This document shows, piece after piece, positions 5,686 to 29,850 of a stretch of DNA of 39,722 bases. The stretch comes from Patescibacteria group bacterium (GTDB lineage Bacteria; Patescibacteriota; Doudnabacteria; UBA920), in the NCBI GenBank assembly GCA_028870105.1, contig JAGWQI010000001.1:1-39722 (forward strand), in the 5' to 3' direction. Below the pieces are notes generated by a model, which had not been told where the DNA came from, did not search any database, and saw only the letters and a list, made by a program, of their open reading frames with translations. The translations under genes and the position numbers were made by a program. Position 1 is the stretch's first letter. Each line of letters opens with the position of its first letter.

Positions 5686-5762
5686 GGACAATTAGCTCAG
5701 TTGGTTAGAGCGCGCCGTTCACATCGGCGAGGTCAGAGGTTCGAGTCCTCTATTGTCCACCA
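5686..5762 (+). tRNA. tRNA-Val (anticodon CAC), CCA encoded
   Basis: Hand-folded cloverleaf: acceptor GGACAAT/ATTGTCC; D arm GCTC-AGTTGGTTA-GAGC; anticodon arm CGCCG-TTCACAT-CGGCG; variable AGGTC; T arm AGAGG-TTCGAGT-CCTCT; discriminator A plus CCA. Total 77 nt. Confidence 0.95.
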
Positions 5763-6615: not shown

Positions 6616-7908
6616 ATGGGCCGACACAAGAAAACCCAGACTGATGGCGCTTACACGCCAAAAAAGATCCCGGCTCTGGAAGGCGCGGCGGACGTGATTA
6701 CCGATTCTGATCCGCTTTGGGAAGCCGTGCTCAAACGCTTGGCTAATATCGGCAAGACTTATGGTTTTGCGAAAGTTGAGCCGCCACTTTTAGAAGATCA
6801 ATATTTATACCAAAGTTTTTACCGGCAGAACCAGCTGCCGCCGGAAGTTTTGGCGGTAAGCGGCCCGGCCCGGCCGGCGGCCTTGCGGCCGGCAATGCTG
6901 CCCGGCGTGTTGCGCGGATATTATCAGAACAAAATTTTTGACAAACTACCTTTAGCCAAGTGGCATTATGGCGGTTGGACTTATCGGGTCGACAAAAAAG
7001 GCTTGCTGACTTCTAATTTTGAATACGGCCTGGAGATTTTTGGCGGTTTTACCCATTTGGCCGAAGCGCAGCTGATTGGCGCGGTTTGGGAGCTTTTAGG
7101 TTCGCTGGGATTGAAGGATGTGGCTTTGGAAGTGAACAATATTGGCGAGCAGGCTTGCCAGCAGGCTTACCAGGATAGTCTGCGTGATTTTTTGCGCGGC
7201 AAAAAGTATGATTTGTGCGACAATTGTAACGAGTCGTTGCAGACGCGCCCGTTGAACGTGTTTCGCTGCGCCAATTTGGATTGCCAGTCGTTGTTGGCTG
7301 AAGCGCCGGCAATTTTGGATTTTTTGAGCGAAGCCTCGCACAAGCAGTTCACCAGCATGTTGGAAGCCTTGGACGAAATGGGGATCCCGTACCAACTTAA
7401 CCCCGTGTACGCGGGGGTGGAAGGCTGCGCCAAGACCAACTTTGTGTTCAAGTACAAGACCAAGGACGAAACTTACATTCTGGGAGAAGGGGGTAGCCAC
7501 GAAGGTTATATACAAACATTGTGCGGCAAGCCGCATAGTTGCTTTGGATTTGTTGGCAGCGCCAGCCTGCTGAGGCAGCTTCTGGAGCAGAACAAGGTTA
7601 GCGTGTCAAAAGAGCTCCATAGCGACGTGTTTTTGGTGCCGCTTGGCGAATTGGCTTCCAAGAAATCCTTGCGCCTGTTTCGTGATTTAACCACCCAGCG
7701 CATTGCGGTGCATGACCATTTTGGCCAGAGCGGCGTTAAAAACCAGCTCAAGGCCGCGCAAACCCAAAGCGCGCCGATTGCTTTGATTATGGGCCAAAAA
7801 GAGGCGATGGAGGAAATGGTCATTTTGCGCGACGTAAAAAGCGGGATGCAAGAAGTAATTTCTTATGATAAAATAGTAGACGAGGTTAAGAAACGGTTGG
7901 GCAAGTAG
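6616..7908 (+). CDS. Histidyl-tRNA synthetase-like protein (class IIa fold plus anticodon-binding domain) with divergent catalytic motifs
   Basis: LRPAMLPGVLRGY aligns with LRPEGT. The CDNCNESLQTRPLNVF insertion is HisRS-like. The C-terminus VFLVPLG...APIALIMGQKE...VILRDVKSGMQ is a typical class IIa anticodon-binding domain. Motif 2, motif 3 and the histidine-binding boxes look degenerate (see findings). Confidence 0.75.
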   Translation: MGRHKKTQTDGAYTPKKIPALEGAADVITDSDPLWEAVLKRLANIGKTYGFAKVEPPLLEDQYLYQSFYRQNQLPPEVLAVSGPARPAALRPAMLPGVLRGYYQNKIFDKLPLAKWHYGGWTYRVDKKGLLTSNFEYGLEIFGGFTHLAEAQLIGAVWELLGSLGLKDVALEVNNIGEQACQQAYQDSLRDFLRGKKYDLCDNCNESLQTRPLNVFRCANLDCQSLLAEAPAILDFLSEASHKQFTSMLEALDEMGIPYQLNPVYAGVEGCAKTNFVFKYKTKDETYILGEGGSHEGYIQTLCGKPHSCFGFVGSASLLRQLLEQNKVSVSKELHSDVFLVPLGELASKKSLRLFRDLTTQRIAVHDHFGQSGVKNQLKAAQTQSAPIALIMGQKEAMEEMVILRDVKSGMQEVISYDKIVDEVKKRLGK

Positions 7909-9410: not shown

Positions 9411-10658
9411 ATGAGCAAGGAAACTTACATTGTCGGGTTAGACGTGGGTACAGCCAACATCCGCGCGGTGCAGGCCAAGCTGGAAGGCGAGACCGGGCGG
9501 TTTAACGTCATTGGCGCCAGCGAAGCGCCCAGCCAAGGCTTGCGGCGCGGCGTTATTGTGGATATTGAAGAGGCCGTTTCCAGCGTGGCCGTGGCTTTGG
9601 AAAATCTCGAGCGCATGACCGGCGTGCCGGTGGAGGCGGCTAACGTTAGCATTGGCGGCAACCACATTACTTCCGTGGCTTCCCACGGAGTTATTGCCGT
9701 CTCGAGGGCCGACGGCGAAATTATGGAAAGCGATATTGTCCGCGCCGTGGACGCTTCGCAGGTTATTTCCATTCCCAACAATCGCGAGGTGCTGCACGTG
9801 TTCCCAAAAAGTTTTATCCTCGACGGCCAAACTGGCATTAAGGATCCTTTGGGCATGAGCGGTATCCGCTTGGAGGTGGATACCTTAATTGTCCAGGCCG
9901 GCTTGCCGTTTGTTAAAAATCTGACTAAGGCCATTACTCAGGCGGGATTGGAAATTGAGGACTTGGTTTTGGCTCCGTGCGCCGCGGCTGAAGCGGTTTT
10001 GAGCAAACGCCAGCGCGAGCTGGGCGTGGCTCTGGTGGATTTGGGCGCGGGCACAACCAGCTTGGCGATTTACGAGGAAGGTGACTTGCTGCATACGGCC
10101 GTGATTCCCATTGGCCAGATGCACGTGACCAACGATATTGCCATTGGCCTGCGCTGCAGCATTGACACGGCGGAAAAAGTTAAATTGCTGTACGGCCATT
10201 GCGACGTTAAGGCCATTGACCGTGAAGAGGAGATTGACCTGTCCAAGCTCGATTCCAGCGAGGAGCAATCGGCCCTGCGCGGCTACGTGGTGGAAATAAT
10301 TGAGGCGCGGCTGGAAGAAATTTTTGATCGCGTGAACGCCGAGCTAAAAAAATCCGGCCGCGACGGCAAACTGCCGGCCGGGCTGGTTTTAACCGGCGGC
10401 GGCAGCAAACTGCCGGGCGCGGTGGAGTTTGCCAAAAAGCGCCTGCGCTTGCCGGCCGGGTTGGGTATGCCGCAAAACGTGACTACGGTCATTGACCGTG
10501 TGGATGACCCGGCCTTTGCCACGGCCGTGGGTTTGGTGTTGTGGGGTGGTAAGTTTTCAGCTGGCGGCGGCGACAAGCTGGCCAGCTTTATGTCCGGCTG
10601 GCTGCAAAAGGACAGCGTGGCGAAACTGCGCAAGTGGCTGAAATCCTTTTTGCCGTAG
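9411..10658 (+). CDS. ftsA: Cell division protein FtsA
   Basis: Actin-fold motifs VGLDVGTANIRAV, DLGAGTTSLAIY and LVLTGGGSKLPG. The C-terminal amphipathic tail is LRKWLKSFLP. Confidence 0.95.
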   Translation: MSKETYIVGLDVGTANIRAVQAKLEGETGRFNVIGASEAPSQGLRRGVIVDIEEAVSSVAVALENLERMTGVPVEAANVSIGGNHITSVASHGVIAVSRADGEIMESDIVRAVDASQVISIPNNREVLHVFPKSFILDGQTGIKDPLGMSGIRLEVDTLIVQAGLPFVKNLTKAITQAGLEIEDLVLAPCAAAEAVLSKRQRELGVALVDLGAGTTSLAIYEEGDLLHTAVIPIGQMHVTNDIAIGLRCSIDTAEKVKLLYGHCDVKAIDREEEIDLSKLDSSEEQSALRGYVVEIIEARLEEIFDRVNAELKKSGRDGKLPAGLVLTGGGSKLPGAVEFAKKRLRLPAGLGMPQNVTTVIDRVDDPAFATAVGLVLWGGKFSAGGGDKLASFMSGWLQKDSVAKLRKWLKSFLP

Positions 10659-10687
10659 GTTTACGGTCGGGAACGTAAAATAAATAT

Positions 10688-10712
10688 AGACGCCAGTAAG
10701 GCGTCTTTTTTC
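10688..10712 (+). terminator. Rho-independent terminator directly after ftsA
   Basis: AGACGCC-AGTAA-GGCGTCT followed by T6. Confidence 0.8.
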
Positions 10713-10783
10713 TTGGTATTAAGCCAAGTTTTTAGTTTGAGTGTTATTTTATGGCTTAAAAATAGTGCGTTTTAAGCCGAGTC

Positions 10784-10812
10784 TTGACATTTTCCAAAAA
10801 AGAGTGTATAGT
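10784..10812 (+). promoter_or_regulatory. Near-consensus promoter TTGACA-17-TATAGT for the ORFan block, abutted upstream by palindrome GGCTTAAAA-N8-TTTTAAGCC (10753..10778)
   Basis: TTGACA at 10784..10789 and TATAGT at 10807..10812. It carries the same GTCTTGACA word as the promoter at 1831..1839. Confidence 0.6.
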
Positions 10813-10899
10813 TATAGGTTATATTTAAAGCTCTAAACAGCCTTAAATATAGCAAGTACTTTGCAAAAATTAGGAGGATTTAAGCGTTATTTAGGAAGT

Positions 10900-10946
10900 G
10901 GTCATAGCAATAAGCCTGTAAAGTTTATAGGTTTGTTGCTATGACC
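10900..10946 (+). promoter_or_regulatory. 11-bp perfect leader hairpin whose 3' arm contains the start codon of the 393-aa gene
   Basis: GGTCATAGCAA (10900..10910) pairs with TTGCTATGACC (10936..10946); the ATG is at 10941. AGGAGG lies at 10872..10877 and AGGAAG at 10893..10898 upstream. Confidence 0.5.
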
Positions 10947-12122
10947 AACTTCAAAAGCACAATTTTTGCGGCGTGCCTCGCGGCCGCCATGTTCGTGTTT
11001 TTCGCCACCGCCGCTGTGGCCCAAACCCCGGTTCCGCAGGGATGTTTTCTGCTGCAGACCGGGCAGACTTTTTGCCCGGTCCAGCCGTCCGCTCCTACGC
11101 CCGCTCCGACCGCTACCTCATCCGCAGCGCAGCTGCGGACGGCGATTTCGGAGGCCCAGGATATTAACCGCCAACTTCAGGCTGTACAGCAGCCAGGAGT
11201 CCCGTGGCCGATGTTCTGGTCAATCGCCTTCATTATTGTGTTATTGGCGGTAATCGCGGGGATTTACGTGTGGTGGCTGTCACAGCACCACCCGACGATC
11301 CGGACGAGTATTCGTCCGGCTGACGGCCAGGCGCAGGTTAACTTTGTACCTGTGCTGCCGCCCCCGCCCGCACCCGCGCCTGCCCCGGCTCCCGCGCCGT
11401 TGCCTGCTGGCACTCCCGCGCCTGGCAACTGTGGCACGTGCGGTACCGCGTATCCGGCGGCCGCTCGTTTCTGCGCCGCTTGCGGCCGGGTGCTCCCGTT
11501 GGTTTTGTTCGCGCTGTTGCTGTTTGGTTTTAGCCATACGGCCATGGCGCAGCAGAACAATGAGGTACGCTATGCATGCGTGGTTAACGGCGTGCCGGGT
11601 TTCTGCTCGCAGCCTCCGGCTGCGACGCCTGCCCCGGCCTCCGCTCCCGCAGCGCCCGCGCCTCCGGCCCCCGCGCCGCGCCGCCACATTGCTGCCCCGG
11701 CCTCCGCTCCCGCAGCTTCCACGCCGCAGCAGCAGGTTGAGGCGATCACGAGAGGCGTGATCCAGGCCCTGCGCGAGCAGGGTGTGGTGGCGCCCGCGAC
11801 GTCTCCGAAGCCTACTGCCAGTTCTCTTTCTGAGGTGACTCAGGAAGTGGCGGACAGGATTTCTGCCGTGGAAACGCGGCAGAACATGATTACCAATCAG
11901 CAGAACATGATTGGTAATCGCCTCGGCGGTGTGGAAGCCGACCTTAAAAGGGTCGGCGACTACGCCAATAAGGTGGGGGAGCTTTCGGCGGCCACGGCCG
12001 CCGGGGCCATCCCCAAAATGTCCGAAAAGGGCGGGGGGAACAGCCCGGCTTGCCGGGCCTACCAGGCCCTGCAGGCTGTGGCGGGGGAGGTTAGTGGCCG
12101 CGCTCCGCGCGGCTGCAAATAA
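10941..12122 (+). CDS. Hypothetical Pro/Ala-rich envelope protein: signal peptide, TM, zinc ribbon, second TM, coiled-coil C-terminus
   Basis: - Signal-like N-terminus: MTNFKSTIFAACLAAAMFVFFATAAVAQ.
- First TM: MFWSIAFIIVLLAVIAGIYVWWL.
- Zinc ribbon: CGTC-x11-CAAC.
- Second hydrophobic segment: VLPLVLFALLLFGFSHTAMAQ.
- PAPAPAP linkers.
- No family recognised. Confidence 0.7.
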   Translation: MTNFKSTIFAACLAAAMFVFFATAAVAQTPVPQGCFLLQTGQTFCPVQPSAPTPAPTATSSAAQLRTAISEAQDINRQLQAVQQPGVPWPMFWSIAFIIVLLAVIAGIYVWWLSQHHPTIRTSIRPADGQAQVNFVPVLPPPPAPAPAPAPAPLPAGTPAPGNCGTCGTAYPAAARFCAACGRVLPLVLFALLLFGFSHTAMAQQNNEVRYACVVNGVPGFCSQPPAATPAPASAPAAPAPPAPAPRRHIAAPASAPAASTPQQQVEAITRGVIQALREQGVVAPATSPKPTASSLSEVTQEVADRISAVETRQNMITNQQNMIGNRLGGVEADLKRVGDYANKVGELSAATAAGAIPKMSEKGGGNSPACRAYQALQAVAGEVSGRAPRGCK

Positions 12123-12145
12123 CCCAAATAACGCTTCAGCAGTTT

Positions 12146-12204
12146 GGGGGAGAGGAACCTTAAAGGGATTGTTTACACACAATCCGCCTCTCCCCAAGTT
12201 TTTC
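12146..12204 (+). terminator. Two-tier hairpin plus T-run between the two envelope genes (terminator/attenuator-like)
   Basis: Outer stem GGGGAGAGG (12147..12155) / CCTCTCCCC (12187..12195). Inner stem GGATTGT (12166..12172) / ACAATCC (12179..12185). Followed by AAGTTTTTCC. Confidence 0.5.
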
Positions 12205-12209
12205 CAGGT

Positions 12210-12238
12210 TTGCCTTGGTTAAAGACAGCGGCTAAACT
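12210..12238 (+). promoter_or_regulatory. Weak candidate promoter TTGCCT-17-TAAACT
   Basis: Hexamers at 12210..12215 and 12233..12238. Sequence match only. Confidence 0.3.
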
Positions 12239-12279
12239 AGTTTGGCCTTTGTGTTTAAAAGGTAAAAGGAGGATACCAG

Positions 12280-12331
12280 ATCATCATAGCGGTAAGCGCG
12301 GCATTGTTGCTGTGTTTGCGGCTATGATGAT
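12280..12331 (+). promoter_or_regulatory. 11-bp perfect leader hairpin whose 3' arm contains the ATGATGATG start of the next gene
   Basis: ATCATCATAGC (12280..12290) pairs with GCTATGATGAT (12321..12331). AAGGAGG at 12266..12272 lies 7 nt 5' of the stem. Confidence 0.5.
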
Positions 12332-12998
12332 GCTAATTTTTGCATTGCTGTTTGGCGCCGTTTTGCCCGCTCAGACGCGGGCCGATGGCAAAGTGCGGTT
12401 TTTTATGCCGCGCGCGGACTCGCCCACTGCCATGCGGCGGTGCGGCAGCGACTTGGAGGCTCTCAAGAAATTGGGGAGCCTCCAACGTTACGTTTTTAGC
12501 GGGTCAGAACGCCTGACCGAGATGGCGTTCTGTGGAGCCACCGGCGGAATAGATCGCGTACACGTGTACGCGGTGCCGGCCGGCACCGTTGGCTGGCTCA
12601 AGCCAGACGGCTCGGGCCGCATCGTCCTGGAAGAGTGCGTCAATGACGCAATCTGTAAGGGCTGCGAATTACCTAAGCCGTTTGCGCCGGCCGCACCGCC
12701 GCCTGTGGAAGCGCCGCCGCCTACCCCGGCAGTCATGCTGTTGCCACCGCCTGAACCGGTGGCGCTTAATGACCTGCCGCCGGCGCCCGCGGCGTGGCAG
12801 CAGCCGGAAATTTCGGTCGAGCTCCTTTGGGAGATTGGCCGGAAGTTCCCGATTCCGTGCTATCCCCGCGAGCGGGGGTGGTACGGCACGGGGCTGCCGA
12901 TCGCCGAATGCGCTGCTGTTGGCGCCATCGCCTGGTGGCTGTGGCCGGCAGCAGCAGTGGTTGGCACCAAAGTACCGGTGCCGGTCATCACGCCGTAA
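12324..12998 (+). CDS. Hypothetical secreted/anchored Cys- and Pro-rich protein
   Basis: Start taken at MMMLIFALLFGAVLPAQTRA (signal-peptide-like) rather than the track start 12144, which would read through the terminator-like hairpin. It has a Pro-rich linker and a C-terminal hydrophobic segment AAVGAIAWWLWPAAAVVG. Confidence 0.65.
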   Translation: MMMLIFALLFGAVLPAQTRADGKVRFFMPRADSPTAMRRCGSDLEALKKLGSLQRYVFSGSERLTEMAFCGATGGIDRVHVYAVPAGTVGWLKPDGSGRIVLEECVNDAICKGCELPKPFAPAAPPPVEAPPPTPAVMLLPPPEPVALNDLPPAPAAWQQPEISVELLWEIGRKFPIPCYPRERGWYGTGLPIAECAAVGAIAWWLWPAAAVVGTKVPVPVITP

Positions 12999-13017
12999 AA
13001 GTCGGCAGCAAACGCTC

Positions 13018-13058
13018 AGCCGGGACGACTCACGTTGTCCCGGCTTTTCTTTTTTTTA
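13018..13058 (+). terminator. Rho-independent terminator
   Basis: AGCCGGGAC-N10-GTCCCGGCT followed by TTTTCTTTTTTTT. Confidence 0.8.
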
Positions 13059-13098
13059 TTTTTATGGTTAAATAAAAGCAAATAGATTTAAACATTTT

Positions 13099-15636
13099 AT
13101 GTCCGAAGAAACCAAAGAAAAAATCATTGACGTGAGTTTTAGCGCGGTAAAAGCGGGTGAGCCGGCTGAGGCCATAAATGCCCCGGAGACGGCCGAAGTA
13201 GAAACCGTGGCCCCAGAGCCTAAAGCGGAATCAAAAGTAAATGTTAAAGGCTTTCGGCGCCGGCGCCGGGCCAGAGTGAGCTCGACTTTAATTGATTACG
13301 GCGACTTTCGGGCCTTTGAGGCCACTAAGGAATTGGACATTCGGGGCAAAAAGGTCCAGGTGCCGGATTTCCGCATTATCGTCAATGACGAATTAATCAA
13401 CGAGCTGGTTAAGCGCCGGCTCTTGAAAAAGGAAGACCAGGCCGTTCCGGCAAAAATTGAGCAGGCCTTACGGCCGTTGCTGGACAAGGTGCTGCGCAAT
13501 AATTGGGATTTTGACCCCAAAGACTTGCGCGTGGAAGGCCGGGGCGACAACATGGAGCTGGTAATGCAAATGGATAAGCGCGATATGCGCGTGCCGTTTG
13601 CCGACGCCCGCATGGTCATGAAAAATGTTTTGGGGCAGGATAACGGCTACTTAAACGCGGCCTACGAGGCCCGCAAAAACCCCCGTTATTATCAAAAATT
13701 AAAAAAATATTGGAACGACGCCCAATTTCAGCAATTTAAAGACGACTTCCAGAATATTTCCAACCGTTCGCTTAAAACTTTGCAGGAAACCGTTTCAGCT
13801 GGAAAGAATTGGGAGGCGGAATATTTGGCGGCCAAGGAGCTGCTGGTCAAGGAGGGCGCGGCTGAAGGAACGGATTCGGCGAAATTAGACGGGGCGCGCG
13901 AACTGGTGCGGGCCGTGGAAGACGTGGTGCTGCAGGCTGGCGTGCCGAATTATCGCGACACGATTTTGCACCAAGCCTTGCTCGAACGGCTGAAAAATTA
14001 CGAACAAATCGCTAAGCGGGAGAACGAAGACTTGTTGACCAAGGTTTTGGCCGAGCCGGAAAGCTACCCCTGGAGCCGCCTGCAGAAGTTATTGGCCAAA
14101 GAGAGGCCTGAGGCCAAGGCGCAACTTTATTCCCAGCTGCTTAATTCCGCCGGAGTTTATCGGTCGTATAGGTGGGTGGAAGACAAAGCTTTTGTAAAGA
14201 ACGGGCAGGACCCGGAAAAGTGGCCGTTTCCGCTTAAGCGGCCGCGCAATTTTTTGTCCCTGTCCGCCAGGGCCGCGCTGGAAGTGCTGCAACGCCAGTC
14301 CCGGCAGCCGGAGTACGAATTGCCGCCGACGCGGTTTTTTGAGCAGGCGGTGGTAACAGAGTTCGCCGGCAGCGTCCCGGAGCTTAGGCCCGAGCAACAG
14401 CCGGCGGTTGTGATTCAGGAAGAAAGCGGTAAAGGGTTTTTGCGTTTGTACTTAAAGCACCCAAAAAAGGCCGACGAAACCAGGAGATTTTATTTGCCGA
14501 TTGGCGGCGGCGGGCTATTGCGGGCGCCGGAGCAGAATGACGCGCATAAATTTTACGAGGCGGGGCAGCATTTGTTTGAAGGGCGTAATAGTTTTAATTT
14601 GGCCATTACTTGGGAAGGCGGGGACGATAGCGACCCGGTGTTTTCGTTCGCGGCGCAAGGCTTAGGCGGCCAAGTTAAAAAGCGGCTTAGTGAGTTGCAG
14701 TCTAATTTGGATTTTGGCAGCTTGCTGGAAAGCAAAATTTGCGTTGCGGAGTTTTTGGCCTGGAAGAAACGCGAAAAAACCGAAGGGCGCGCGAAATTAG
14801 ACGAATCCGGCGCCTATAATCGGGAATTGACCACTGACCAGCGCAACCAAATAGGCCGCATGACCGGTATTTTATCCTACCGCGGCATTCCGTCTTTGGG
14901 CGAGCAGCTAATCGCCGAGCATATTAGTAAGGTTTTAAGTTTGGAATCGGATTTAACGAGGCAGGCATCCTTAAAACGCCGGGTTAAGATTGGCGGCGCT
15001 TTAAAGACCGAAGCTGCGGTTGCCGAACGGCAGCCGGTTTTGCCGGAAATCAAGTATTCCTCGGCGGAAACGGATTTTATTAAGGAATTGGTTTACAGCG
15101 AGGTTCCGTCCGGGTCGGATTTTATGTCGGCCAGCGAGCTGCAAACCGCGATTTTGGCTAAAGCCCAAGAATTTAAGTTGCAACCGGCGGCGCTGACCTT
15201 GAGGCTTTTGAAGTCTTTGGAAAATTTGCTGGCCGGGCAAAAGCAAATTTTGTCTCGCGGCATTGGTGATTTGGAATTAGCCAAACAATTTAAGCGCCAG
15301 GTTAAGTTAAGTCCGGAAGAGAGTTTGGAAATTTTGGTTAAGGGTTTGCGCGCGGCGCTGCGCGACATCGCGGTGTCCGGCGAGGTTTTACCTTCCGAGC
15401 GGGCTGTGGTGTTTGCCGAAAGCTTGGAACAGCAGGGATTGTCGTCACCGGAACTGCGGCGGTTTTGCGCCAGCCAGTACGACGTATTTATGGATCGAAC
15501 TGATCCGAGCAAGCCATTGGATTCCCGCGAAGCGAAGTTCCGGAATTTTTGGCAAAGCTTGGGGCAAAACATGGCTCAAAGGGCGGCGGTTAGCCGGCAA
15601 TTGGGCGGCGGTGAACAAACAAAACTAATCTCATGA
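13099..15636 (+). CDS. Hypothetical 845-aa soluble protein, no recognisable family
   Basis: Long uninterrupted ORF with ordinary amino-acid composition. It has an acidic N-terminus followed by an RRRRRAR run. No P-loop and no TM segment. Its stop overlaps the next start (ATGA). Confidence 0.85.
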   Translation: MSEETKEKIIDVSFSAVKAGEPAEAINAPETAEVETVAPEPKAESKVNVKGFRRRRRARVSSTLIDYGDFRAFEATKELDIRGKKVQVPDFRIIVNDELINELVKRRLLKKEDQAVPAKIEQALRPLLDKVLRNNWDFDPKDLRVEGRGDNMELVMQMDKRDMRVPFADARMVMKNVLGQDNGYLNAAYEARKNPRYYQKLKKYWNDAQFQQFKDDFQNISNRSLKTLQETVSAGKNWEAEYLAAKELLVKEGAAEGTDSAKLDGARELVRAVEDVVLQAGVPNYRDTILHQALLERLKNYEQIAKRENEDLLTKVLAEPESYPWSRLQKLLAKERPEAKAQLYSQLLNSAGVYRSYRWVEDKAFVKNGQDPEKWPFPLKRPRNFLSLSARAALEVLQRQSRQPEYELPPTRFFEQAVVTEFAGSVPELRPEQQPAVVIQEESGKGFLRLYLKHPKKADETRRFYLPIGGGGLLRAPEQNDAHKFYEAGQHLFEGRNSFNLAITWEGGDDSDPVFSFAAQGLGGQVKKRLSELQSNLDFGSLLESKICVAEFLAWKKREKTEGRAKLDESGAYNRELTTDQRNQIGRMTGILSYRGIPSLGEQLIAEHISKVLSLESDLTRQASLKRRVKIGGALKTEAAVAERQPVLPEIKYSSAETDFIKELVYSEVPSGSDFMSASELQTAILAKAQEFKLQPAALTLRLLKSLENLLAGQKQILSRGIGDLELAKQFKRQVKLSPEESLEILVKGLRAALRDIAVSGEVLPSERAVVFAESLEQQGLSSPELRRFCASQYDVFMDRTDPSKPLDSREAKFRNFWQSLGQNMAQRAAVSRQLGGGEQTKLIS

Positions 15637-16418
15637 ACGAAATCGAACTCAGACGGACCTTAGAAGAGCGGCAGCGGGAAGCTGCCGCGGCCATGGTGGG
15701 TGAAATGCAGACGCAAATGTCGGAATTGGCCGAAGCGCAAATGTTGGACGCTTGTATTGACTTAGCCAGGCAGGAGCTGTTACAATGCTCGGCTACCCCC
15801 CTAGGCGTTTATGAAGCTTTGCAAAAAGTCCATAAGAGCGCCGGTCCGGCGCAGCAGCTTGATAAGGATCGGCTGGAGGCGTTTAACCGGCGGTTAGCGG
15901 GAAATATTATTGAGTGGTTGGAGCGGGTGACTAATATCCAGGTGCGCTCGGCCCTGCAAGCGCGGACCGAGGCGGACCCAAAGACCAATGAGTGGAAAGA
16001 ATTTTATAAGATTACGGCCGAGGTCTTAACTAAAATGCGGGAGGTAAAACAAGAGCGGCCGGTTCCCGCCGCCTCGGATTTAGCAGATTTGGGGATTGCG
16101 CTAGAAGATGTTAAAGCCGAAGTAAAAATACCGGAGCCGGAAGCCGGCGTTGACGTTATTCCACCCGGGGGGTTTATAGACACAGTCGCGGAAGAGCCTA
16201 CTGCGGAAGAGCCGGAAAAGTTGCCGCTGTTTGTAAAAATTCTGGAAACGGCTAAAGAGAACGCGTTTGCCGATTTTATGTCCCGCAAGCAAGACCCGAA
16301 AAATCCGTTTCCGTTAGAGAAGCTAAGGCAAGTGTTTGAGTCCTTATGGGAGCTTGAAGAATATAAAGCCAAGGAGCAAATTTTGGAGGCTTTAAAAAAG
16401 GCCGGCGTAATTAAGTAA
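15633..16418 (+). CDS. Hypothetical 261-aa acidic protein
   Basis: ATGA overlap with the upstream gene (15633..15636) implies translational coupling. Glu-rich; no motifs recognised. Confidence 0.8.
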   Translation: MNEIELRRTLEERQREAAAAMVGEMQTQMSELAEAQMLDACIDLARQELLQCSATPLGVYEALQKVHKSAGPAQQLDKDRLEAFNRRLAGNIIEWLERVTNIQVRSALQARTEADPKTNEWKEFYKITAEVLTKMREVKQERPVPAASDLADLGIALEDVKAEVKIPEPEAGVDVIPPGGFIDTVAEEPTAEEPEKLPLFVKILETAKENAFADFMSRKQDPKNPFPLEKLRQVFESLWELEEYKAKEQILEALKKAGVIK

Positions 16419-16428
16419 ACATAATGTT

Positions 16429-18597
16429 ATGTCAGAAGAATTTGACAGAAAAGCGGCGGTCGCCGCTTCGTTAGAGCAGCATTTGTCAAAACTAAAGCAG
16501 CCTGATGCCCAGGCGGATTTATCTGTTCCAAGAATATCGCCAACACCCGAGGTGGAAAGACCCAAATCGTTCATTCCTGATGATCCTGAAGAAAGGCGAA
16601 TTTTGGCTGAAAAAAGGGAATCGGAATTGAAAGCTGCCCGCGAAGCTTATGTAAAAACTAAAAGGGATTTGGGCAAGTTTGGGGTCATTAAATCCGTTTG
16701 GGAAGCCTTAAAAGGAAAAGATACCAAGGAAAAAGTTAGGCTGGAACACGAGAAGGCCCAAAAAGAATACGATAAAAAGAAAGCGGAATATTACAAAGTC
16801 GCCACGGCTCAGTTTTTGCAGGAGCGCGATAAGCTGTTGGAAGAAGAAATTAAAAATCAGGCCCCAGGCAAAAGATGGCCCAAGAAAGCTTACGATTGGT
16901 ACAAGGGCCTGTCTAACAAGAACTTGGCTTTATTTGTGGAAAGGGTCCGGGGTAAGAAAATCGAGAACCGCTATGTTAAGGCCGGCTTGGGCATGGTTAA
17001 TCCGCGTACCGCGATTAGCCTTGGCTTGCTGGGTGGCGGCGTATATTTTGGCGCCACTGCGGCCGGCGTGGGTATTTTTACTGCCAGGAGGTTAGTTAGC
17101 GGAACCTCTGCCAGCGTGGGTACCTATGACTTGTTAAACCTGGCCAGAGGCGGCCGGGACCGGGTTAAGCTGGCTAAGGAAATTGATAAAATCGAGACGC
17201 TGGACGAGGTAGAGCAGCGGATGGCCCGCATTGAAGCCCGGGTAATGTTCGACGGCAAGACCTACGAAACCTTACAGGGGGACAGGCTTTACCAGCAGCT
17301 TAAATCTAAGCGCGCGGAAATATACGAGAAAAAAACCGCAGAGCAAGACACGGCCTGGAAGTTATCCCAATTTATAGGCGAGCGTTCCAAAAAGGACGAA
17401 GAGCAAATCGAAAAAAGCCTGGGCAAGGAAAAGAATTTCCGCAGGTTGGCTACGGCCACCGGCGCGGCTGTTGGCGCGGTTATTGGTACCGGCAAACTTA
17501 ATTGGCTTTATCGAAAATTAATGCCGGAGCACGCTTCGGCGGCCGCGCCAAAGGGTTTAGCCGGCCATCCTGAAGCCCCGGCGGAGTTTAAGCCGGCGAT
17601 GCCTCCGGTGCAGGACATTCAGCTGCACGCCGGCAGCCGCGGCATTGAGGGCGCGTTGCTGGATCTTAAAAAAACTAACGCTGAGTCTTACAATAAAATG
17701 CTGGCCTGGATGCAAAACCAGCCGGGGATTGGGCAGGACACGGCCGGACACCAAATTACCGACCCCGGCAAGCTGGTGCACCGTTTCGTGGACAAGTTCG
17801 CCCAAGAGCACAATTTTAACATTGACCAGGGCGGCGGGCATGATTTGAGCCGGATGTTTAAAGCCGACATGGCGGTTCACGCCGACGGCTCAGTGACGTT
17901 TAATACCTCGCCTGAGCATTTTCAGTTTATGCCCGAAAGCCATCACGCGGCTACCGCCGGCCAGCCGGATTTGCACCACGGGGACCTGTCTTCGCTAACG
18001 CCGGAGGAAATCCAAAAAATGGCGCACGACCAGATGCACGACTACTTAGTCCAGCATCCGCAGGAGACCGCTGAGTTAAAGCGCTTATTAAATCCGATTC
18101 AGCCGGATATTGCGCCGCCAACGCACGCCGTGCCAGCCCCTCCCAAGCTGCCGGATTCCGGGATTGCTTTTCCGCGCATGCACGAGCCGCCGGTGGATTT
18201 GCCGCCGCATCAAGATTACGGCTTCGGCGGTTATGACGCCCCAGTTCACGCCGCGGCCAGGCCGGAAATTGCCAGTGCCGCCGGCGAAGTCCTGTTGGCC
18301 AAGGCCACCGCGGCCAAGGATACGGCTAAGGCGCTCAAGCAAATTTTGCCAAAAGATCAGCTGCACAATTTTATGCATAAGGTGCTCGGCGTAAGCGACC
18401 GCAAGCTCAATGGTTTAAAGAATATGAGCGTGTTGGAATTTGCGGAAAAGGCCGAGGTTAATAAAAAATTCCAAAACGAATTTTCCAAATTGGGCAAATT
18501 GATTTTTGAAAAATCTACCCAAGCCGATTGGGACAGCGCGGAAAATTTGAGCGTGCGCCAGTGGCTGGTAAATTACGCTTTAAGAATTAAAAAATAA
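16429..18597 (+). CDS. Hypothetical 722-aa protein with a Lys/Glu coiled-coil N-terminus, two Gly-zipper hydrophobic segments and a His/Pro-rich C-terminal half
   Basis: Hydrophobic segments are AISLGLLGGGVYFGATAAGVGIF and LATATGAAVGAVIGTG. The gap to the upstream gene is 10 nt. Confidence 0.85.
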   Translation: MSEEFDRKAAVAASLEQHLSKLKQPDAQADLSVPRISPTPEVERPKSFIPDDPEERRILAEKRESELKAAREAYVKTKRDLGKFGVIKSVWEALKGKDTKEKVRLEHEKAQKEYDKKKAEYYKVATAQFLQERDKLLEEEIKNQAPGKRWPKKAYDWYKGLSNKNLALFVERVRGKKIENRYVKAGLGMVNPRTAISLGLLGGGVYFGATAAGVGIFTARRLVSGTSASVGTYDLLNLARGGRDRVKLAKEIDKIETLDEVEQRMARIEARVMFDGKTYETLQGDRLYQQLKSKRAEIYEKKTAEQDTAWKLSQFIGERSKKDEEQIEKSLGKEKNFRRLATATGAAVGAVIGTGKLNWLYRKLMPEHASAAAPKGLAGHPEAPAEFKPAMPPVQDIQLHAGSRGIEGALLDLKKTNAESYNKMLAWMQNQPGIGQDTAGHQITDPGKLVHRFVDKFAQEHNFNIDQGGGHDLSRMFKADMAVHADGSVTFNTSPEHFQFMPESHHAATAGQPDLHHGDLSSLTPEEIQKMAHDQMHDYLVQHPQETAELKRLLNPIQPDIAPPTHAVPAPPKLPDSGIAFPRMHEPPVDLPPHQDYGFGGYDAPVHAAARPEIASAAGEVLLAKATAAKDTAKALKQILPKDQLHNFMHKVLGVSDRKLNGLKNMSVLEFAEKAEVNKKFQNEFSKLGKLIFEKSTQADWDSAENLSVRQWLVNYALRIKK

Positions 18598-18600
18598 AAT

Positions 18601-18906
18601 ATGAATAGAAATATCCTCGAGGGTAATATTATCGCGCAGCTTGGCTTGGAAAAGCTGCCGGATGAAGAAAAGGCCGCTTTGCTGGAACAAATGGTCGGTT
18701 GGGTGGAGAAGCGGGTGTTCGGCAAAATTCTGGCGTCTTTGGCCGAGGCCGACAAAGCGCGGTTTTTGGAAATTATGGAAAGCGGCGACCAGGCGGCCTC
18801 GGAAGAGTTCTTGTCTCAGAAGGTTCCAAACTTCGCGGAGCTGCTAGAACAGGAAACCGCCGCCGCCAAGCAGGAGCTGGCTGAGTTTCATAAGACACTC
18901 GATTAG
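18601..18906 (+). CDS. Hypothetical 101-aa helical acidic protein
   Basis: Starts 3 nt after the upstream stop. The LPDEEKAALLEQMVGWVEKRVFGKILASL...DKARFLEIM pattern resembles small helical proteins I associate with Patescibacteria (possibly DUF5663-like; unverified). Confidence 0.75.
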   Translation: MNRNILEGNIIAQLGLEKLPDEEKAALLEQMVGWVEKRVFGKILASLAEADKARFLEIMESGDQAASEEFLSQKVPNFAELLEQETAAAKQELAEFHKTLD

Positions 18907-18925
18907 CCCCCTAAAGGCTGAAAAT

Positions 18926-18953
18926 TTGTCTAAAGCCGGCGGTATGCTATAAT
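18926..18953 (+). promoter_or_regulatory. ftsZ promoter TTGTCT-16-TGcTATAAT (extended -10)
   Basis: TTGTCT at 18926..18931, TGC at 18945..18947 and TATAAT at 18948..18953. Confidence 0.6.
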
Positions 18954-18984
18954 GCCCCTAGCTTAAAACCAAACACAAACACCA

Positions 18985-19030
18985 AATACAACCAAAATTC
19001 GGCTGCCTTTCCCCGGTTGTATTTTATTTT
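18985..19030 (+). promoter_or_regulatory. Terminator-like hairpin in the ftsZ leader
   Basis: AATACAACC (18985..18993) pairs with GGTTGTATT (19015..19023), followed by TTTATTTTG and preceded by a C/A-rich tract (18965..18998). Confidence 0.4.
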
Positions 19031-19082
19031 GCCTAAGCCTTGCACTCTTTTGATTAATTTTGTATTCTTTATTTAGCATTTC

Positions 19083-20270
19083 ATGAGCAAAAAAATGGAA
19101 GTTAAACCAAAAGTTGAGACCTTTGCCAGAATCAAAGTTTTGGGCATCGGCGGATCGGGCACTAACGCGGTTAACCGCATGTCGCAGCTGGGCATCCGCG
19201 GCGTGGAGTTTGTTTCGGTCAATACCGACGCGCAAGCCTTGCATAATAACCAGGCCGATCGCAAGGTTCATATTGGGCGCGGTGTAACCAAGGGCCTGGG
19301 CAGCGGCATGAACCCCGAGCTTGGCCGGCAGGCGGCCGAGGAAAGCGTGGAAGAGTTGGAAGAAGTCGTGGATAACGCCGACATGGTGTTTATTACTTGC
19401 GGCCTTGGCGGCGGCACCGGCACGGGAGCCGCACCGATTATCGCCGAGCTGGCGAAGAACAAAGGCATCCTAACCGTGGCGGTGGTCACTAAGCCATTCA
19501 CGTTCGAAGGCAGCAAGCGCAAGGAAGTGGCTGAGGTTGGTTATGACAATTTGAAAGATAAAGTTGACGCCATTATTTCCATCCACAACGACCGCATTTT
19601 GCAGATCATCGACAAGAAAACTTCTTTGGTCGACGCGTTTAAGACTGTGGACGAGGTTTTGCGGCAGGGGATTTCCGGCATCAGCGATTTGATTACCACC
19701 CACGGTATTGTTAACGCCGACTTTGCGGACGTGAGAAGCATTATGCAGGACGCCGGCACGGCGCTCATGGGCATTGGCCATGCCAGCGGCGATACCCGCG
19801 CCCAAGACGCGGCCCGTCTGGCTATTAATTCGCCGCTGCTGGAAATGACTATCGACGGCGCCAAGGGCGTGTTGTTCAACATTACTGGCGGTCCCTCTTT
19901 GGGCATGTTCGAGATTGACGAGGCGGCCAAGGTGATTACCAAGAGTATTGATCCGGATGCCAAGGTTAAGTTTGGCGCGGTCATCGACGAAAGCATGGGC
20001 GACGACATCCGCATTACCGTCATTGCCACGGGTTTCGACGAAGCCAACAAGCGGCCAATGCCGGCGGTACTGCCGACTCAGCAAGAACATAAAAAATCCG
20101 AACCGCGGCCGGTCCAGCCCGCGCCGGAAATGCGCAAACCGTTGTTTGCGCCGCAGCCGGTGGCGCCGGTTTCCCAGGCACCGCGGCCGGTCCAGCCCGC
20201 GCCGCAGCCGGACGCCGCGCCCGATGACGAACTGGATATTCCCGCGTTCATTCGCAAAAAGATGAAATAA
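19083..20270 (+). CDS. ftsZ: Cell division protein FtsZ
   Basis: [13 protein letters not shown], the [10 protein letters not shown] tubulin signature, NTDAQAL, and the C-terminal FtsA-binding peptide [13 protein letters not shown]. Confidence 0.97.
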
Positions 20271-20352: not shown

Positions 20353-20548
20353 ATATACAGATATTGAAAAGGTCGATATCGGCACAAAAACAAGCCGGTA
20401 AATATCGTCTAAGAAACAAAAAAGCAAACAAAAATAAAATTAAATACCTCCAAAATTATCGGCTCTTTCAATTGGAGAGCGGATATAAATTGGTTTAAAG
20501 TGGTTTTGCCATTTAAACCAACTTTCTAGAGTTTTGGAACAAAGCATT

Positions 20549-20974
20549 ATGGAAACTTTGTTAACTACAGAGAGCCCGGGCAAGGTTATTGGGCTACTTG
20601 GCGCGGCCATGTGCTCGTTGGTGTTTTTGCTGGCCGTAACGCTCAGCGACGCCAGCTTTAGCGGCCAGCAGCAAGTGCTGCCTGACCCGTTCGGCCCGCA
20701 GCAGGTTATGGCCGTGCTCGACCAGGCCAGCAACAGCTACAGCAAGCTGGCCGACGCTTATTTTATTAACCCGCTCATGAACAGTTATTCGTCCATGTAC
20801 CAAAGCGCGCAGAGCGCGGTGGCGTTTATGCGGGAGTCCGACGTTGACGTGCGCATTGTGGCCATGGCCGGACTGTCGGATTTAGTCTGGCAGGAGCCTA
20901 CGCCAATGGCGCATCCTTCGCATTTGGCGCCCGGCCAAGTGGCCGGCGCGTTCACTATGCACCAAGCGCCATAA
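20549..20974 (+). CDS. Hypothetical membrane-anchored protein
   Basis: METLLTTESPGKVIGLLGAAMCSLVFLLAVTL (one TM), then a soluble domain. ATG at 20549 is preferred to TTG at 20534. No family recognised. Confidence 0.55.
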   Translation: METLLTTESPGKVIGLLGAAMCSLVFLLAVTLSDASFSGQQQVLPDPFGPQQVMAVLDQASNSYSKLADAYFINPLMNSYSSMYQSAQSAVAFMRESDVDVRIVAMAGLSDLVWQEPTPMAHPSHLAPGQVAGAFTMHQAP

Positions 20975-28190: not shown

Positions 28191-28412
28191 ATGCGCATCA
28201 CCGTATTAGTCCACCCCAACGCCAAACAGCCCCGCGTGGAGAAAGACCTGCTGGGCGGTTTGCATGTTTACGTCGGCGCGCCGCCGCTGGACGGCCGCGC
28301 CAACGAGGCGGTCATTAATTCCTTGGCCAATTATTTTAGGGTTAAAAAATATCAAATAAAATTAATTAGAGGCCACAAGTCCAAACTCAAGATTTTTGAG
28401 ATTGCCGACTAA
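28191..28412 (+). CDS. DUF167 (YggU) family protein
   Basis: MRITVLVHPNAKQPRV...APPLDGRANEAVINSLANYF...IRGHKSKLKIFEI. Confidence 0.8.
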   Translation: MRITVLVHPNAKQPRVEKDLLGGLHVYVGAPPLDGRANEAVINSLANYFRVKKYQIKLIRGHKSKLKIFEIAD

Positions 28413-29850
28413 AAGCCAAATTTTTATGGGACTGGCCGCGAGTTTTGCGGCCGGCATTGGGCTGTCGTCGGCTTTTGGGTTGGATCAACGGATTGCGCTG
28501 CTAGTTTTGGCGGCGGGCGCGGCGCTATTTGCGGTGAGTTTTAGTCAGCCGCTCGGGGGCGCGGCGCTGTTGGGCTTATATCTCTGCGCTTTGGCAGTCG
28601 GGGCGTTGCGGCTGCAGGCGTCGGTGCAAGCTAACCAATACGAGCGGCTCTTTGGCAATAAGCAGCAGCTAGAGGGTTTTATTGTGGAAGATGTCGACGT
28701 GCGGCAGAATTATCAATTTTTGACCATCCAGCCTCGGGGTTTTGGCCAAAGAATACTGGTTAGCGCTTCACTAAACCAAAAGTTTTTTTATGGCGATTGG
28801 GTTTTGCTTAACGGCAAAGTCCAGCAGCCGGAAAATTTTGACGACTTTGATTATCAAAAATATTTGGAGCGCTACAATGTTTACGCGGTCATGAAGTACC
28901 CGCAGATTTTGACCTTAAAGAGCCATCGGCAAAATGTGGTGAAGGAGTGGCTGCTTAATGTTAAGTGGGCGTTCACGCGGCGCGTTGATCGGCTATTGCC
29001 GGAACCGCAGAGCAGCCTTTTGATGGGTATTTTAATTGGCGCGCGCAAAACCCTACCGGCCAATATCGTGGATAATTTTAACGCCACCGGCACCTCTCAT
29101 ATTATTGCGGTTTCGGGTTATAATATTACGATTATTGTTTCTAATTTGGCGTTTTTGGCTTACTACCTTGGGCGCCGGTGGCGGTTTTGGGTGGTGTTAC
29201 TGGTTATAGTCGGTTTTGTAATTATTTCCGGCGCCAGCGCTTCCGTGGCGCGCGCCGCCATTATGGGCGGTTTAGCCGCGCTGGCAACGCTGTGGTGGCG
29301 GCAGTATGCCGCCGGCCCGGCGGTGTTCGCGGCCGCTGCTTTGATGTTAGCTGTTAATCCACGCTTGCTTTATTGGGACGCTAGTTTTCAGTTGTCGTTT
29401 TTGGCCACGGTCGGTATTATTTATTTTATGCCGGTGCTTGACCGGTTAACCGCGCATTGGCCGGACATATTTGGGATTAAAACTGTTTTGCTCACCACTT
29501 TTGCCGCCATGGCCTCGACTTTGCCGATTATTTTGTTTACTTTCGGCCGGTTGAGCGCCGTGGCGCCACTGGCGAATGTTTTAATTATTCCGTTCGTGCC
29601 ACTGGTCATGTTATTAGGATTTTTGACGGTTGTGCCATGGCTGGGCGCTGGTTTTGCCTTTGCCGCCAAAATTTTGTTGGACTACATTTTGCGGGTCACG
29701 GCCGCGCTAGCGGTTGTGCCTTATGGCAATTTTAACGTGAAAATTTCCGCGGCCATGTGCGTTTGCCTCTCGCTGCTGATTTTGGCCGGCTATGGCTATT
29801 TGCGCCGCCGGGCCGTTAGGGTTGCGGTTGATGAAAGTCTAAAAATCTGA
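28396..29850 (+). CDS. comEC: ComEC/Rec2 competence channel (DUF4131 plus Competence domain only; no metallo-beta-lactamase domain)
   Basis: GTSHIIAVSGYNITII signature and many TM helices. An alternative start at ATG 28426 would remove the 17-nt overlap with DUF167. Confidence 0.88.
   Translation: MRLPTKSQIFMGLAASFAAGIGLSSAFGLDQRIALLVLAAGAALFAVSFSQPLGGAALLGLYLCALAVGALRLQASVQANQYERLFGNKQQLEGFIVEDVDVRQNYQFLTIQPRGFGQRILVSASLNQKFFYGDWVLLNGKVQQPENFDDFDYQKYLERYNVYAVMKYPQILTLKSHRQNVVKEWLLNVKWAFTRRVDRLLPEPQSSLLMGILIGARKTLPANIVDNFNATGTSHIIAVSGYNITIIVSNLAFLAYYLGRRWRFWVVLLVIVGFVIISGASASVARAAIMGGLAALATLWWRQYAAGPAVFAAAALMLAVNPRLLYWDASFQLSFLATVGIIYFMPVLDRLTAHWPDIFGIKTVLLTTFAAMASTLPIILFTFGRLSAVAPLANVLIIPFVPLVMLLGFLTVVPWLGAGFAFAAKILLDYILRVTAALAVVPYGNFNVKISAAMCVCLSLLILAGYGYLRRRAVRVAVDESLKI

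Follow-up and report, generated by a model that had tools for sequence, protein, structure and literature searches.

A probable clade-specific hypervariable gene island in the ftsA-ftsZ spacer of Candidatus Doudnabacteria

The genes ftsA and ftsZ lie 8424 bp apart in a 39,722-nucleotide contig (JAGWQI010000001.1, assembly GCA_028870105.1; NCBI locus tags KGJ93_*), a 39.7 kb piece of a metagenome-assembled genome (MAG) of a Patescibacteria group bacterium whose closest relatives are annotated as Candidatus Doudnabacteria. This whole stretch of DNA is called the window below. FtsA (9411..10658, + strand; TIGR01174 4e-113, 378 bits against a cut-off of 175.85; Pfam FtsA and SHS2_FTSA) and FtsZ (19083..20270, + strand; TIGR00065 6e-123, 410.6 bits against a cut-off of 295.2) both exceeded their NCBIfam cut-offs and are bona fide orthologues. 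Rather than being immediate neighbours, the two genes form the left and right conserved flanks of a block of six + strand open reading frames (ORFs), as stated in a preliminary description of the window made from its sequence alone; the six are grouped here into module A (O1-O2) and module B (O3-O6). We consider it probable, at roughly 60%, that this block represents the form taken here by a flexible (hypervariable) island that is specific to one clade, occupies the ftsA-ftsZ spacer and serves a variable envelope or cell-contact interface rather than the core divisome. The observations behind this reading are a conserved site, its restriction to one clade, variable content, modular composition, a pairing of DUF5663 proteins with giant proteins, and independent promoters; an envelope or cell-contact role is the most likely one.

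To place the block among relatives, 80 species-representative related loci (designated by L numbers) were collected by a genome scan with FtsA, each with 10 kb on either side. In 64 of the 80 loci ftsZ was located within 700 bp of ftsA (median gap 142 bp). Of the 14 nearest relatives, with FtsA identities of 67-81%, 12 lacked an adjacent ftsZ, and only L010 and L011 had the genes side by side. The gap was 7.5 kb in L002, 5.4 kb in L004 and 9.9 kb in L005, and the other nine contained no ftsZ within the 3-10 kb of available downstream sequence. A metagenome scan with FtsZ returned 79 loci, 35 of which were adjacent to ftsA. Furthermore, 18 Doudnabacteria-like metagenome loci (FtsZ identity at least 77%) carried at least 1.5 kb upstream of ftsZ without an adjacent ftsA, and one of them, L092, spanned both genes with a gap of 3.3 kb. 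A neighbour-joining tree of FtsA placed the island-bearing genomes in one clade with L010 and L011 nested inside, whereas all sister clades had the adjacent arrangement. The simplest history is one ancestral split of ftsA and ftsZ followed by two secondary losses. The synteny survey thus showed a block site that is conserved in one clade, variable in content and absent from sister clades, and together with the host-like base composition given below it upholds the earlier view of a resident, lineage-specific block rather than a recent insertion. Enlarged ftsA-ftsZ gaps were also present in the Chloroflexota loci L076 (5.8 kb) and L077 (1.1 kb), indicating that splitting of the pair is not unique to Doudnabacteria.

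The window is a MAG contig, and a chimera that joins the ftsA and ftsZ regions through foreign DNA, arising in assembly or binning, would mimic such a block. Independent assemblies of L002, L004, L005 and L092, all spanning ftsA, island and ftsZ, argue against this, as do the recurrence of the island gene families only in this context and a GC content at third codon positions (GC3) that is uniform across the junctions. An artefact of this kind is thus extremely improbable.

Whereas the site was constant, its content was not. DNA similarity to the nearest relatives, which are ~80% identical in ftsZ DNA, stopped at the 3' end of ftsA (~10567) and resumed at the start of ftsZ (19081-19095). The set of ORFs differed in every locus, yet O1-like, O2-like and DUF5663 families recurred. 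Even the gene beside ftsZ was different in L134, L136 and L152, although FtsZ was 91-94% identical. On the ftsA side, relatives encoded exported or membrane proteins with signal-like N-termini, including an extra family of 460-680 amino acids (aa). Giant ORFs of 700-2000 aa occupied the ftsZ side; they were ~30% charged and Cys-poor, and most had an internal Gly/Ala-rich hydrophobic stretch. The modules reassort, because L163 joins O1 and O2 of the L006 type to O3 of the window type, which L006 lacks; between L163 and L006 the O2-type proteins shared 69% aa identity and the DNA 71-80%, spacer included. These differences, along with foreign GC3 in some relatives, flexible-island cargo and the adjacent pairs of L010 and L011, are at odds with the coherent, conserved module that had been proposed.

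Base composition was examined across the block and its surroundings. GC3 of the six island genes was 0.56-0.71 versus 0.56-0.75 for the host flanking genes. The preliminary description had ascribed host-like codon usage to the last four genes; this is correct for those four and too narrow as a limit, all six having host-like GC3. The GC peak over O1 and O2 is an effect of the second codon position (GC2) caused by their content of Pro (12-13%) and Ala (12-19%). In relatives of low GC (host GC3 0.32-0.47), the ftsA-side genes for secreted proteins had GC3 values of 0.55-0.69, and the giant, DUF5663 and O3-like genes had host-like values of 0.23-0.45. Module A therefore appears to move between lineages, and O1 and O2 of the window do not stand out because the window genome itself is high in GC3.

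A recent insertion of a mobile element, such as a prophage remnant, an integrative and conjugative element or a transposon, would account for a block of orphan genes interrupting a conserved pair, for the raised GC of O1 and O2 and for the foreign GC3 of module A in low-GC relatives. Nevertheless, no integrase, transposase or phage gene was detected in the block with Pfam, NCBIfam or PHROG, in agreement with the first description, and none was associated with the island of any relative. No direct repeats paired the two borders, and the only tRNA gene of the window (5686-5762) lay ~5 kb upstream. Searches of O3 and O5 against phages by tblastn, of the block against plasmids by megablast and of O5 against IMG/VR found nothing, and the only match to defence genes in PADLOC was insignificant (E 0.067). 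With three defining features tested and none of them found, the block falls outside every class of mobile element. Given also the host-range GC3 of all six genes and the occupation of the same site across the whole clade, a recent mobile insertion is very improbable and largely refuted.

Module A consists of O1 (10941-12122, + strand, 393 aa) and O2 (12144-12998, + strand, up to 284 aa with an uncertain start). By hydrophobicity, O1 begins with a signal-peptide-like N-terminus (…ATAAVA/QTP), followed by a C-x8-C motif, a Pro/Ala-rich linker and a transmembrane (TM) segment at 85-116. A candidate CxxC-x10-CxxC zinc ribbon (residues 164-183) lies in a predicted cytoplasmic loop before a second TM segment (183-203), after which come a second Cys motif with a Pro/Ala linker and a helical C-terminal domain closing in a conserved Cys pair. 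The protein contains 12% Pro, 19% Ala and 11 Cys. Its zinc ribbon (Zn_Ribbon_1, PF13240/DZR) scored 2.2e-4 and 21.4 bits, below the Pfam cut-off of 25. Homologs of O1 were identified in L033, L109, L092, L006 and L163, and the CxxC-x10-CxxC motif was kept in L033 and absent from L109. An anti-sigma-like role for the zinc ribbon was considered and dropped for want of a partner sigma factor or supporting profile match. O2 has an N-terminal signal or anchor segment, a Cys-containing domain, a Pro-rich linker and a C-terminal TM anchor, the hydrophobic sequence of which (…ECAAVGAIAWWLWP…VPVPV) was conserved among relatives. The O2 family comprised proteins of L012 (50% identity over 118 aa), L003, L001, L163, L006 and L013. 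These layouts suggest that O1 and O2 are Sec-exported or membrane-anchored and displayed on Pro/Ala stalks, as putative envelope or cell-surface proteins.

Module B is tightly packed. The stop codon of O3 (13099-15636, + strand, 845 aa) overlaps the start of O4 (15633-16418, + strand, 261 aa) in ATGA, and spacers of 10 and 3 nt precede O5 (16429-18597, + strand, 722 aa) and O6 (18601-18906, + strand, 101 aa), respectively. O3 is a soluble protein with 30% charged residues and had no match in Pfam, NCBIfam, PHROG, PADLOC or the Protein Data Bank (PDB). An exhaustive phmmer search of 1.84 billion representative proteins recovered only P0017 (844 aa; full-length match at 34% identity, E 2.6e-118) and a fragment, P0018, and a weak homolog was present in L013. 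In a word-indexed search of 5.8 billion proteins, O3 and O6 matched only themselves. O4 is acidic and soluble, with coding-like GC content at the first (GC1), second and third codon positions; the charged fraction of O3 and O4 is 30-33%. No homolog of O4 was found in any search made (Pfam, NCBIfam, PHROG, PADLOC, PDB and the loci of relatives). On these sequence features the six ORFs are real genes rather than chance ORFs, because O1, O2, O3, O5 and O6 have homologs in relatives and all six show coding-type periodicity with GC1>GC2.

O5 contains 29% charged residues and no Cys. An internal Gly/Ala-rich hydrophobic stretch is located at residues ~195-218 (…LGLLGGGVYFGATAAGVG…) and a second one near 343-356. 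A single-sequence AlphaFold2 (AF2) model was of low confidence (mean predicted local distance difference test, pLDDT, 47), mostly helical with long disordered linkers, and was not used for fold search. In loci fetched via FtsZ, tblastn revealed a homolog in L108 that was collinear over almost the whole length at 23% identity. Directly after it came a DUF5663 gene, whose product is 41% identical to O6, and then ftsZ (81% FtsZ identity). No match to O5 was obtained in scans of the PDB, phages, IMG/VR or metagenome contigs. Identification of O5 as a prophage tape-measure protein was dropped, as no PHROG or phage match was found.

O6 belongs to Pfam DUF5663 (PF18908; 3.7e-11, 43.9 bits versus a cut-off of 23.7, model positions 1-79 of 84), and its homologs in relatives received the same call. 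The earlier statement that the six proteins belong to no recognizable families thus fails for O6 and stands for the rest, the profile searches of all six against Pfam, NCBIfam, PHROG and PADLOC having yielded only this family and the sub-threshold zinc ribbon of O1. O6 is small, acidic and all-helical. Its AF2 model (pLDDT 77) comprised a four-helix core of residues 21-100, for which Foldseek found no structural neighbour in the PDB or BFVD, with nothing better than E 0.77. Sequence and profile searches of the block proteins against the PDB returned nothing meaningful, and a match to the 'CAP repeat' of 8vd6 was dismissed because it contained no passing stretch. A search of 5.8 billion proteins with the DUF5663 alignment gave 15 matches, mostly from the same clade. 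DUF5663 was not mentioned in the literature searched, and to our knowledge no function has been described for the family.

The most regular feature of the islands was the pairing of DUF5663 with a giant ORF. The fetched loci gave 21 DUF5663 matches, all of them either in island loci or on the distant contigs L081-L083; within 10 kb of ftsA, DUF5663 was absent from each of the 66 loci that do not belong to the 14 closest relatives. The DUF5663 gene was on the same strand as a giant ORF, with a gap of -50 to +90 bp, in 16 of 16 loci with enough flank. Either order occurred, DUF5663 preceding the giant in L001, L006, L007, L012, L033, L083, L098 and L155 and following it in the window, L002, L005, L088, L104, L108 and L081. 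The pairing extended to the distant contig L081/L082 of the candidate phyla radiation (CPR). In this contig (L081:4874-15936, and L082), DUF5663 follows two giants of 784 and 876 aa without Pfam matches, and the region continues in L081 with a PDDEXK_3 protein, a VirD4/TrwB-like ATPase, a He_PIG surface protein and ftsA ~9 kb downstream. The C-terminal third of a 1985 aa giant encoded in L155 shares 34% identity with the 784 aa giant of L081. Because an O6-type gene abuts the giant gene in every informative relative, O5 probably works together with O6, and O5 may be held at the membrane by an internal hairpin formed by its Gly/Ala-rich hydrophobic sequence. We know of no earlier description of a constant pairing between a DUF5663 protein and a giant Gly/Ala-zipper protein.

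The giants themselves represent several families with mosaic, domain-shuffled relationships. Iterative searches with hidden Markov models over 7,628 ORFs from all fetched loci, together with hhalign, did not unite the O5-type giants with the other giant families; hhalign gave only weak signals between them, of 17-60% probability, and these did not extend beyond the hydrophobic Gly/Ala stretch. The giants thus share an architecture, and common ancestry was not established.

This polymorphism raises the possibility that module B encodes exported or contact-delivered effectors of an interbacterial or host-directed arsenal, in which the giants would insert into membranes through glycine zippers and DUF5663 would act as a chaperone or adaptor, by analogy with the small helical partners of LXG or Rhs-type toxins. 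LXG toxins pair with Lap partners in type VII secretion, and the resemblance to LXG-Lap pairs lies in an all-helical protein of ~100 aa beside a large, mosaic, fast-evolving one. The strict pairing in either gene order, the domain shuffling and extreme divergence of the giants, and the Gly/Ala-rich hydrophobic stretches common to otherwise unrelated giants would fit this explanation, as would the VirD4/TrwB-like ATPase beside the L081 cassette. Patescibacteria are thought to be epibionts according to PMC12102498 and to abstracts, which provide literature context only. However, VirD4-like genes are scattered throughout patescibacterial genomes (PMC12102498), making the L081 neighbourhood weak evidence. 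In contrast to LXG-Lap pairs, no LXG or WXG domain, type VII secretion gene or fold match was found here, and the O6 fold had no neighbour among known chaperones. No toxin, trafficking or secretion domain was detected, whether in O3-O5 or among 17 giants and other large ORFs from the islands of relatives, nor were immunity, Rhs or secretion-signal domains detected, and the window contained no secretion-system gene. Moreover, DUF5663 is conserved while the giants vary, the opposite of what is typical of immunity proteins. An effector role is accordingly rather improbable.

Besides the recurring families, the islands of relatives contained sporadic cargo. In L001, the closest relative (FtsA 81%), a 616 aa divergent FtsZ/tubulin paralog (PF00091 7.9e-9, above cut-off) was encoded inside the island (L001:14793-16643, +), with GC3 of 0.64 versus ~0.47 for the host and no canonical ftsZ within 10 kb. 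Large island proteins with PP2C/SpoIIE-like domains were present in L004 (11429-14725; SpoIIE 7.3e-8) and, with a weaker match, in L013 (14500-16101), where the gene directly follows the O3 homolog in the slot of O4-O5 of the window. A PEP-CTERM protein (Pfam 4.1e-15) was encoded at L002:12603-14000 (-), with GC3 of 0.69 in a genome of ~0.45. A CPR lineage presumed to be monoderm would not be expected to use PEP-CTERM/exosortase sorting, which suggests a foreign origin for this gene. Further labels were read from the N-termini of ORFs and had no profile support: toxin-antitoxin pairs resembling nucleotidyltransferase (NTase) and HEPN proteins directly 5' of ftsZ (L100:3075-3714, L117:3473-4181 and L138:1174-1813) and, elsewhere in islands, PIN-like (L008:11546-11917), GIY-YIG-like (L012:17217-17480) and ArsR-like (L033) proteins. 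A second family of small proteins (92-119 aa, acidic and helical) was located just 5' of ftsZ in place of DUF5663 (L004:15882-16160, L097:1014-1373, L098:9354-9692, L117:2913-3266 and L134:114-404); a further copy, L007:20319-20630, lies inside the island. The members share a C-terminal motif, (D/E)-x-A-R-x-x-(I/L/V). Interpretation of this family as a mimic of the FtsZ C-terminal peptide was dropped, the resemblance being only vague.

An alternative with a direct link to division is that O3-O6, and perhaps O1-O2, form a lineage-specific accessory module of the divisome or cytoskeleton, acting as fast-evolving Z-ring regulators or membrane tethers in the manner of EzrA, ZipA or SepF and kept beside ftsZ by selection for co-regulation. 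The position between ftsA and ftsZ is kept across the whole clade, and DUF5663 is often the last gene before ftsZ (window, L002, L108, L135, L086 and L118). Like EzrA, ZipA and SepF, the block genes are linked to ftsZ, and proteins of the O5 type have long helices as well as a hydrophobic stretch that would associate with the membrane. ZipA consists of a TM segment followed by a Pro-rich linker, an arrangement also seen in O1. The FtsZ/tubulin paralog, the PP2C-like phosphatases and the distant DUF5663 cassette near ftsA point in the same direction. Against this, none of O1-O6 matched a known FtsZ or FtsA binder (ZapA-D, SepF, EzrA, ZipA, FtsEX, MinC and others) at E<=0.1 in Pfam or NCBIfam, and none was found among PDB sequences; the hydrophobic segment of O5 is internal rather than N-terminal. 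The families are replaced rather than conserved within the clade, as seen beside ftsZ in close relatives, and L010, L011 and all sister clades retain very similar FtsA and FtsZ without the island. DUF5663 was missing near ftsA from the 66 more distant loci, other cargo looks unrelated to division (toxin-antitoxin-like, GIY-YIG-like and PIN-like by N-termini, and PEP-CTERM by Pfam), and each unit carries a terminator or promoter of its own instead of sharing a transcript with ftsA and ftsZ. A divisome module is thus unlikely. Among the candidate roles first suggested, envelope or attachment functions fit O1 and O2, while a divisome function is unsupported, with no positive evidence beyond position.

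The terminators, promoters and abutting palindrome of the preliminary description were all recovered. ftsA is followed by a bidirectional intrinsic-terminator-like hairpin and T run (10688..10712, +; hairpin 10688-10706), with a 7 bp stem containing 5 GC pairs and then TTTTTTCTT. A predicted sigma-70-type promoter of O1-O2, TTGACA-17-TATAGT (10784..10812, +), has 11 of 12 consensus matches. Its -35 element is abutted by a perfect 9 bp palindrome, GGCTTAAAA-N8-TTTTAAGCC (10753..10778, unstranded), and a second, related 13 nt inverted repeat, TATATTTAAAGCT-N6-AGCCTTAAATATA (10820..10851, unstranded; 92% complementary), lies just 3' of the -10 element; both are candidate operators. With an additional TTAAGCC copy at 10719, the two related palindromes bracket the promoter (10719-10851), an arrangement that looks like candidate operator sites of some regulator. 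Three of the 12 copies of GGCTTAA in the window cluster at 10719-10778; a window-wide role for the motif was rejected, since 12 copies were found versus 10.4 expected. O1-O2 is closed by a strong putative terminator (13018..13058, +; hairpin 13018-13045) with a 12 bp stem, 8 GC pairs and a T run, and no promoter-like site was scored at 13046-13098, 5' of O3. ftsZ has its own predicted extended -10 promoter, TTGTCT-16-TGcTATAAT (18926..18953, +), followed by a leader of ~130 nt. An extended -10 element (TGnTA(t/a)AAT, with TTG… upstream) occurred 75-185 bp 5' of ftsZ in many island-bearing loci and also in the island-free relatives L090, L096, L099, L112, L121 and L123. ftsZ thus seems to be independently transcribed across this broader lineage, as the element occurs with and without the island. 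Because ftsA has its own terminator and ftsZ its own promoter, insertion of the island would break no operon.

A mechanism consistent with these features can be proposed. Separate transcription units of ftsA and ftsZ would let the spacer tolerate an island composed of module A, with its own promoter and terminator and encoding envelope or surface proteins, and module B, encoding large charged proteins of which O5 would be membrane-associated and paired with O6. Content would turn over through very fast divergence and exchange of modules between lineages, possibly by DNA uptake followed by homologous recombination in the conserved flanks. This route is plausible because ComEC (28396-29850, +) and DprA (679-1812, -) are both encoded in the window. 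Diversifying selection at the cell surface or contact interface, through interaction with hosts, phages or neighbours, may drive the process.

Fixed-site flexible islands are known from elsewhere, including HVR2 of SAR11, which lies between rRNA genes, and the cps locus of pneumococci, which is flanked by dexB and aliA. A cell-wall-associated island of Haloquadratum walsbyi is described in PMC4535781. The present block resembles flexible islands in its conserved core flanks, fixed site across a clade, variable envelope-rich content, lack of an integrase and exchange of modules, while strain-level replacement was not directly observed here. It differs from those named in that its site splits ftsA from ftsZ, otherwise adjacent in most related loci, and in that its cargo is not devoted to glycosylation or capsule but consists of orphan Pro/Ala-rich membrane proteins and giant-DUF5663 pairs. 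What sets it apart as new is where the island sits, which protein families it encodes and how DUF5663 pairs with giants; the kind of system is already known.

Several points weigh against a flexible envelope or cell-contact island. No block protein has an experimentally understood homolog, so that the proposed role is drawn from sequence features, and hydropathy heuristics, not a dedicated predictor, served to assign signal peptides and topology. O3, O4 and O6 lack TM segments and export signals, and module B may be purely cytoplasmic. The FtsA tree carried no support values, in the nine close relatives with no ftsZ in the available sequence the gene could sit elsewhere rather than further downstream, and without same-species genomes recent turnover and recombination were not directly observed. 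Furthermore, a pure hotspot model does not explain the persistence of the site beside ftsZ, the FtsZ/tubulin paralog of L001 or the PP2C-like phosphatases of L004 and L013, and a neutral hotspot does not explain the distant DUF5663 cassette of L081 ~9 kb from ftsA. A different possibility, which we regard as doubtful, is that O5-O6, possibly with O3-O4, constitute a hitherto unrecognised, Patescibacteria-specific two-component system in which DUF5663 chaperones or docks a membrane-inserting giant, the placement reflecting a functional tie to the division site instead of a neutral hotspot. Such a tie might take the form of a fast-evolving septal or membrane scaffold, or of contact proteins deployed at the new pole of an epibiont.

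The surroundings of the block are ordinary chromosome. The genes 5' of ftsA encode a HisS-like protein, HIT, RpsU (S21) and YqeY, and the order hisS-HIT-rpsU-yqeY-ftsA was kept in the closer relatives (~40 of 80 loci). No dcw gene precedes ftsA, contrary to the initial placement of ftsA at the distal end of a dcw cluster, and ftsA-ftsZ is a stand-alone pair in this lineage. The window also encodes DprA, Der, LCP, signal peptidase, AIR-synthase-like, NrdR, RNR, ComEC, peptidyl-prolyl isomerase (PPIase), NDK, RelA/SpoT and Fpg proteins. The 'HisS' of the window (6616-7908, +) gave a weak match to the HisRS core (tRNA-synt_His 7e-13), yet its synteny is kept across the clade, and the gene may encode either a divergent HisRS or a paralog resembling HisZ. 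3' of ftsZ, a 146 aa protein without a family (20534-20974, +) has one N-terminal TM segment. Homologs after ftsZ were found almost only in the island-bearing clade, L010 and L011 included, apart from weak matches in a few outgroups. The protein might serve as a marker of the clade or act in division in a lineage-specific way.

The flexible island proposed here indicates that ftsA and ftsZ can remain stably separated where both have transcription signals of their own, and it places a hypervariable region of fixed position in an uncultured, streamlined CPR lineage of ultra-small bacteria. The analysis defines several new orphan families, namely the O3 family and the putative surface proteins of the O1-like and O2-like families, in which a C-terminal anchor is conserved. 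For DUF5663 it also provides a first lead from gene context, namely its obligate position next to giant charged proteins that have Gly/Ala-rich hydrophobic stretches. Regions of this type usually mark genes for contact with hosts, phages or neighbours, which are the least understood part of patescibacterial biology.

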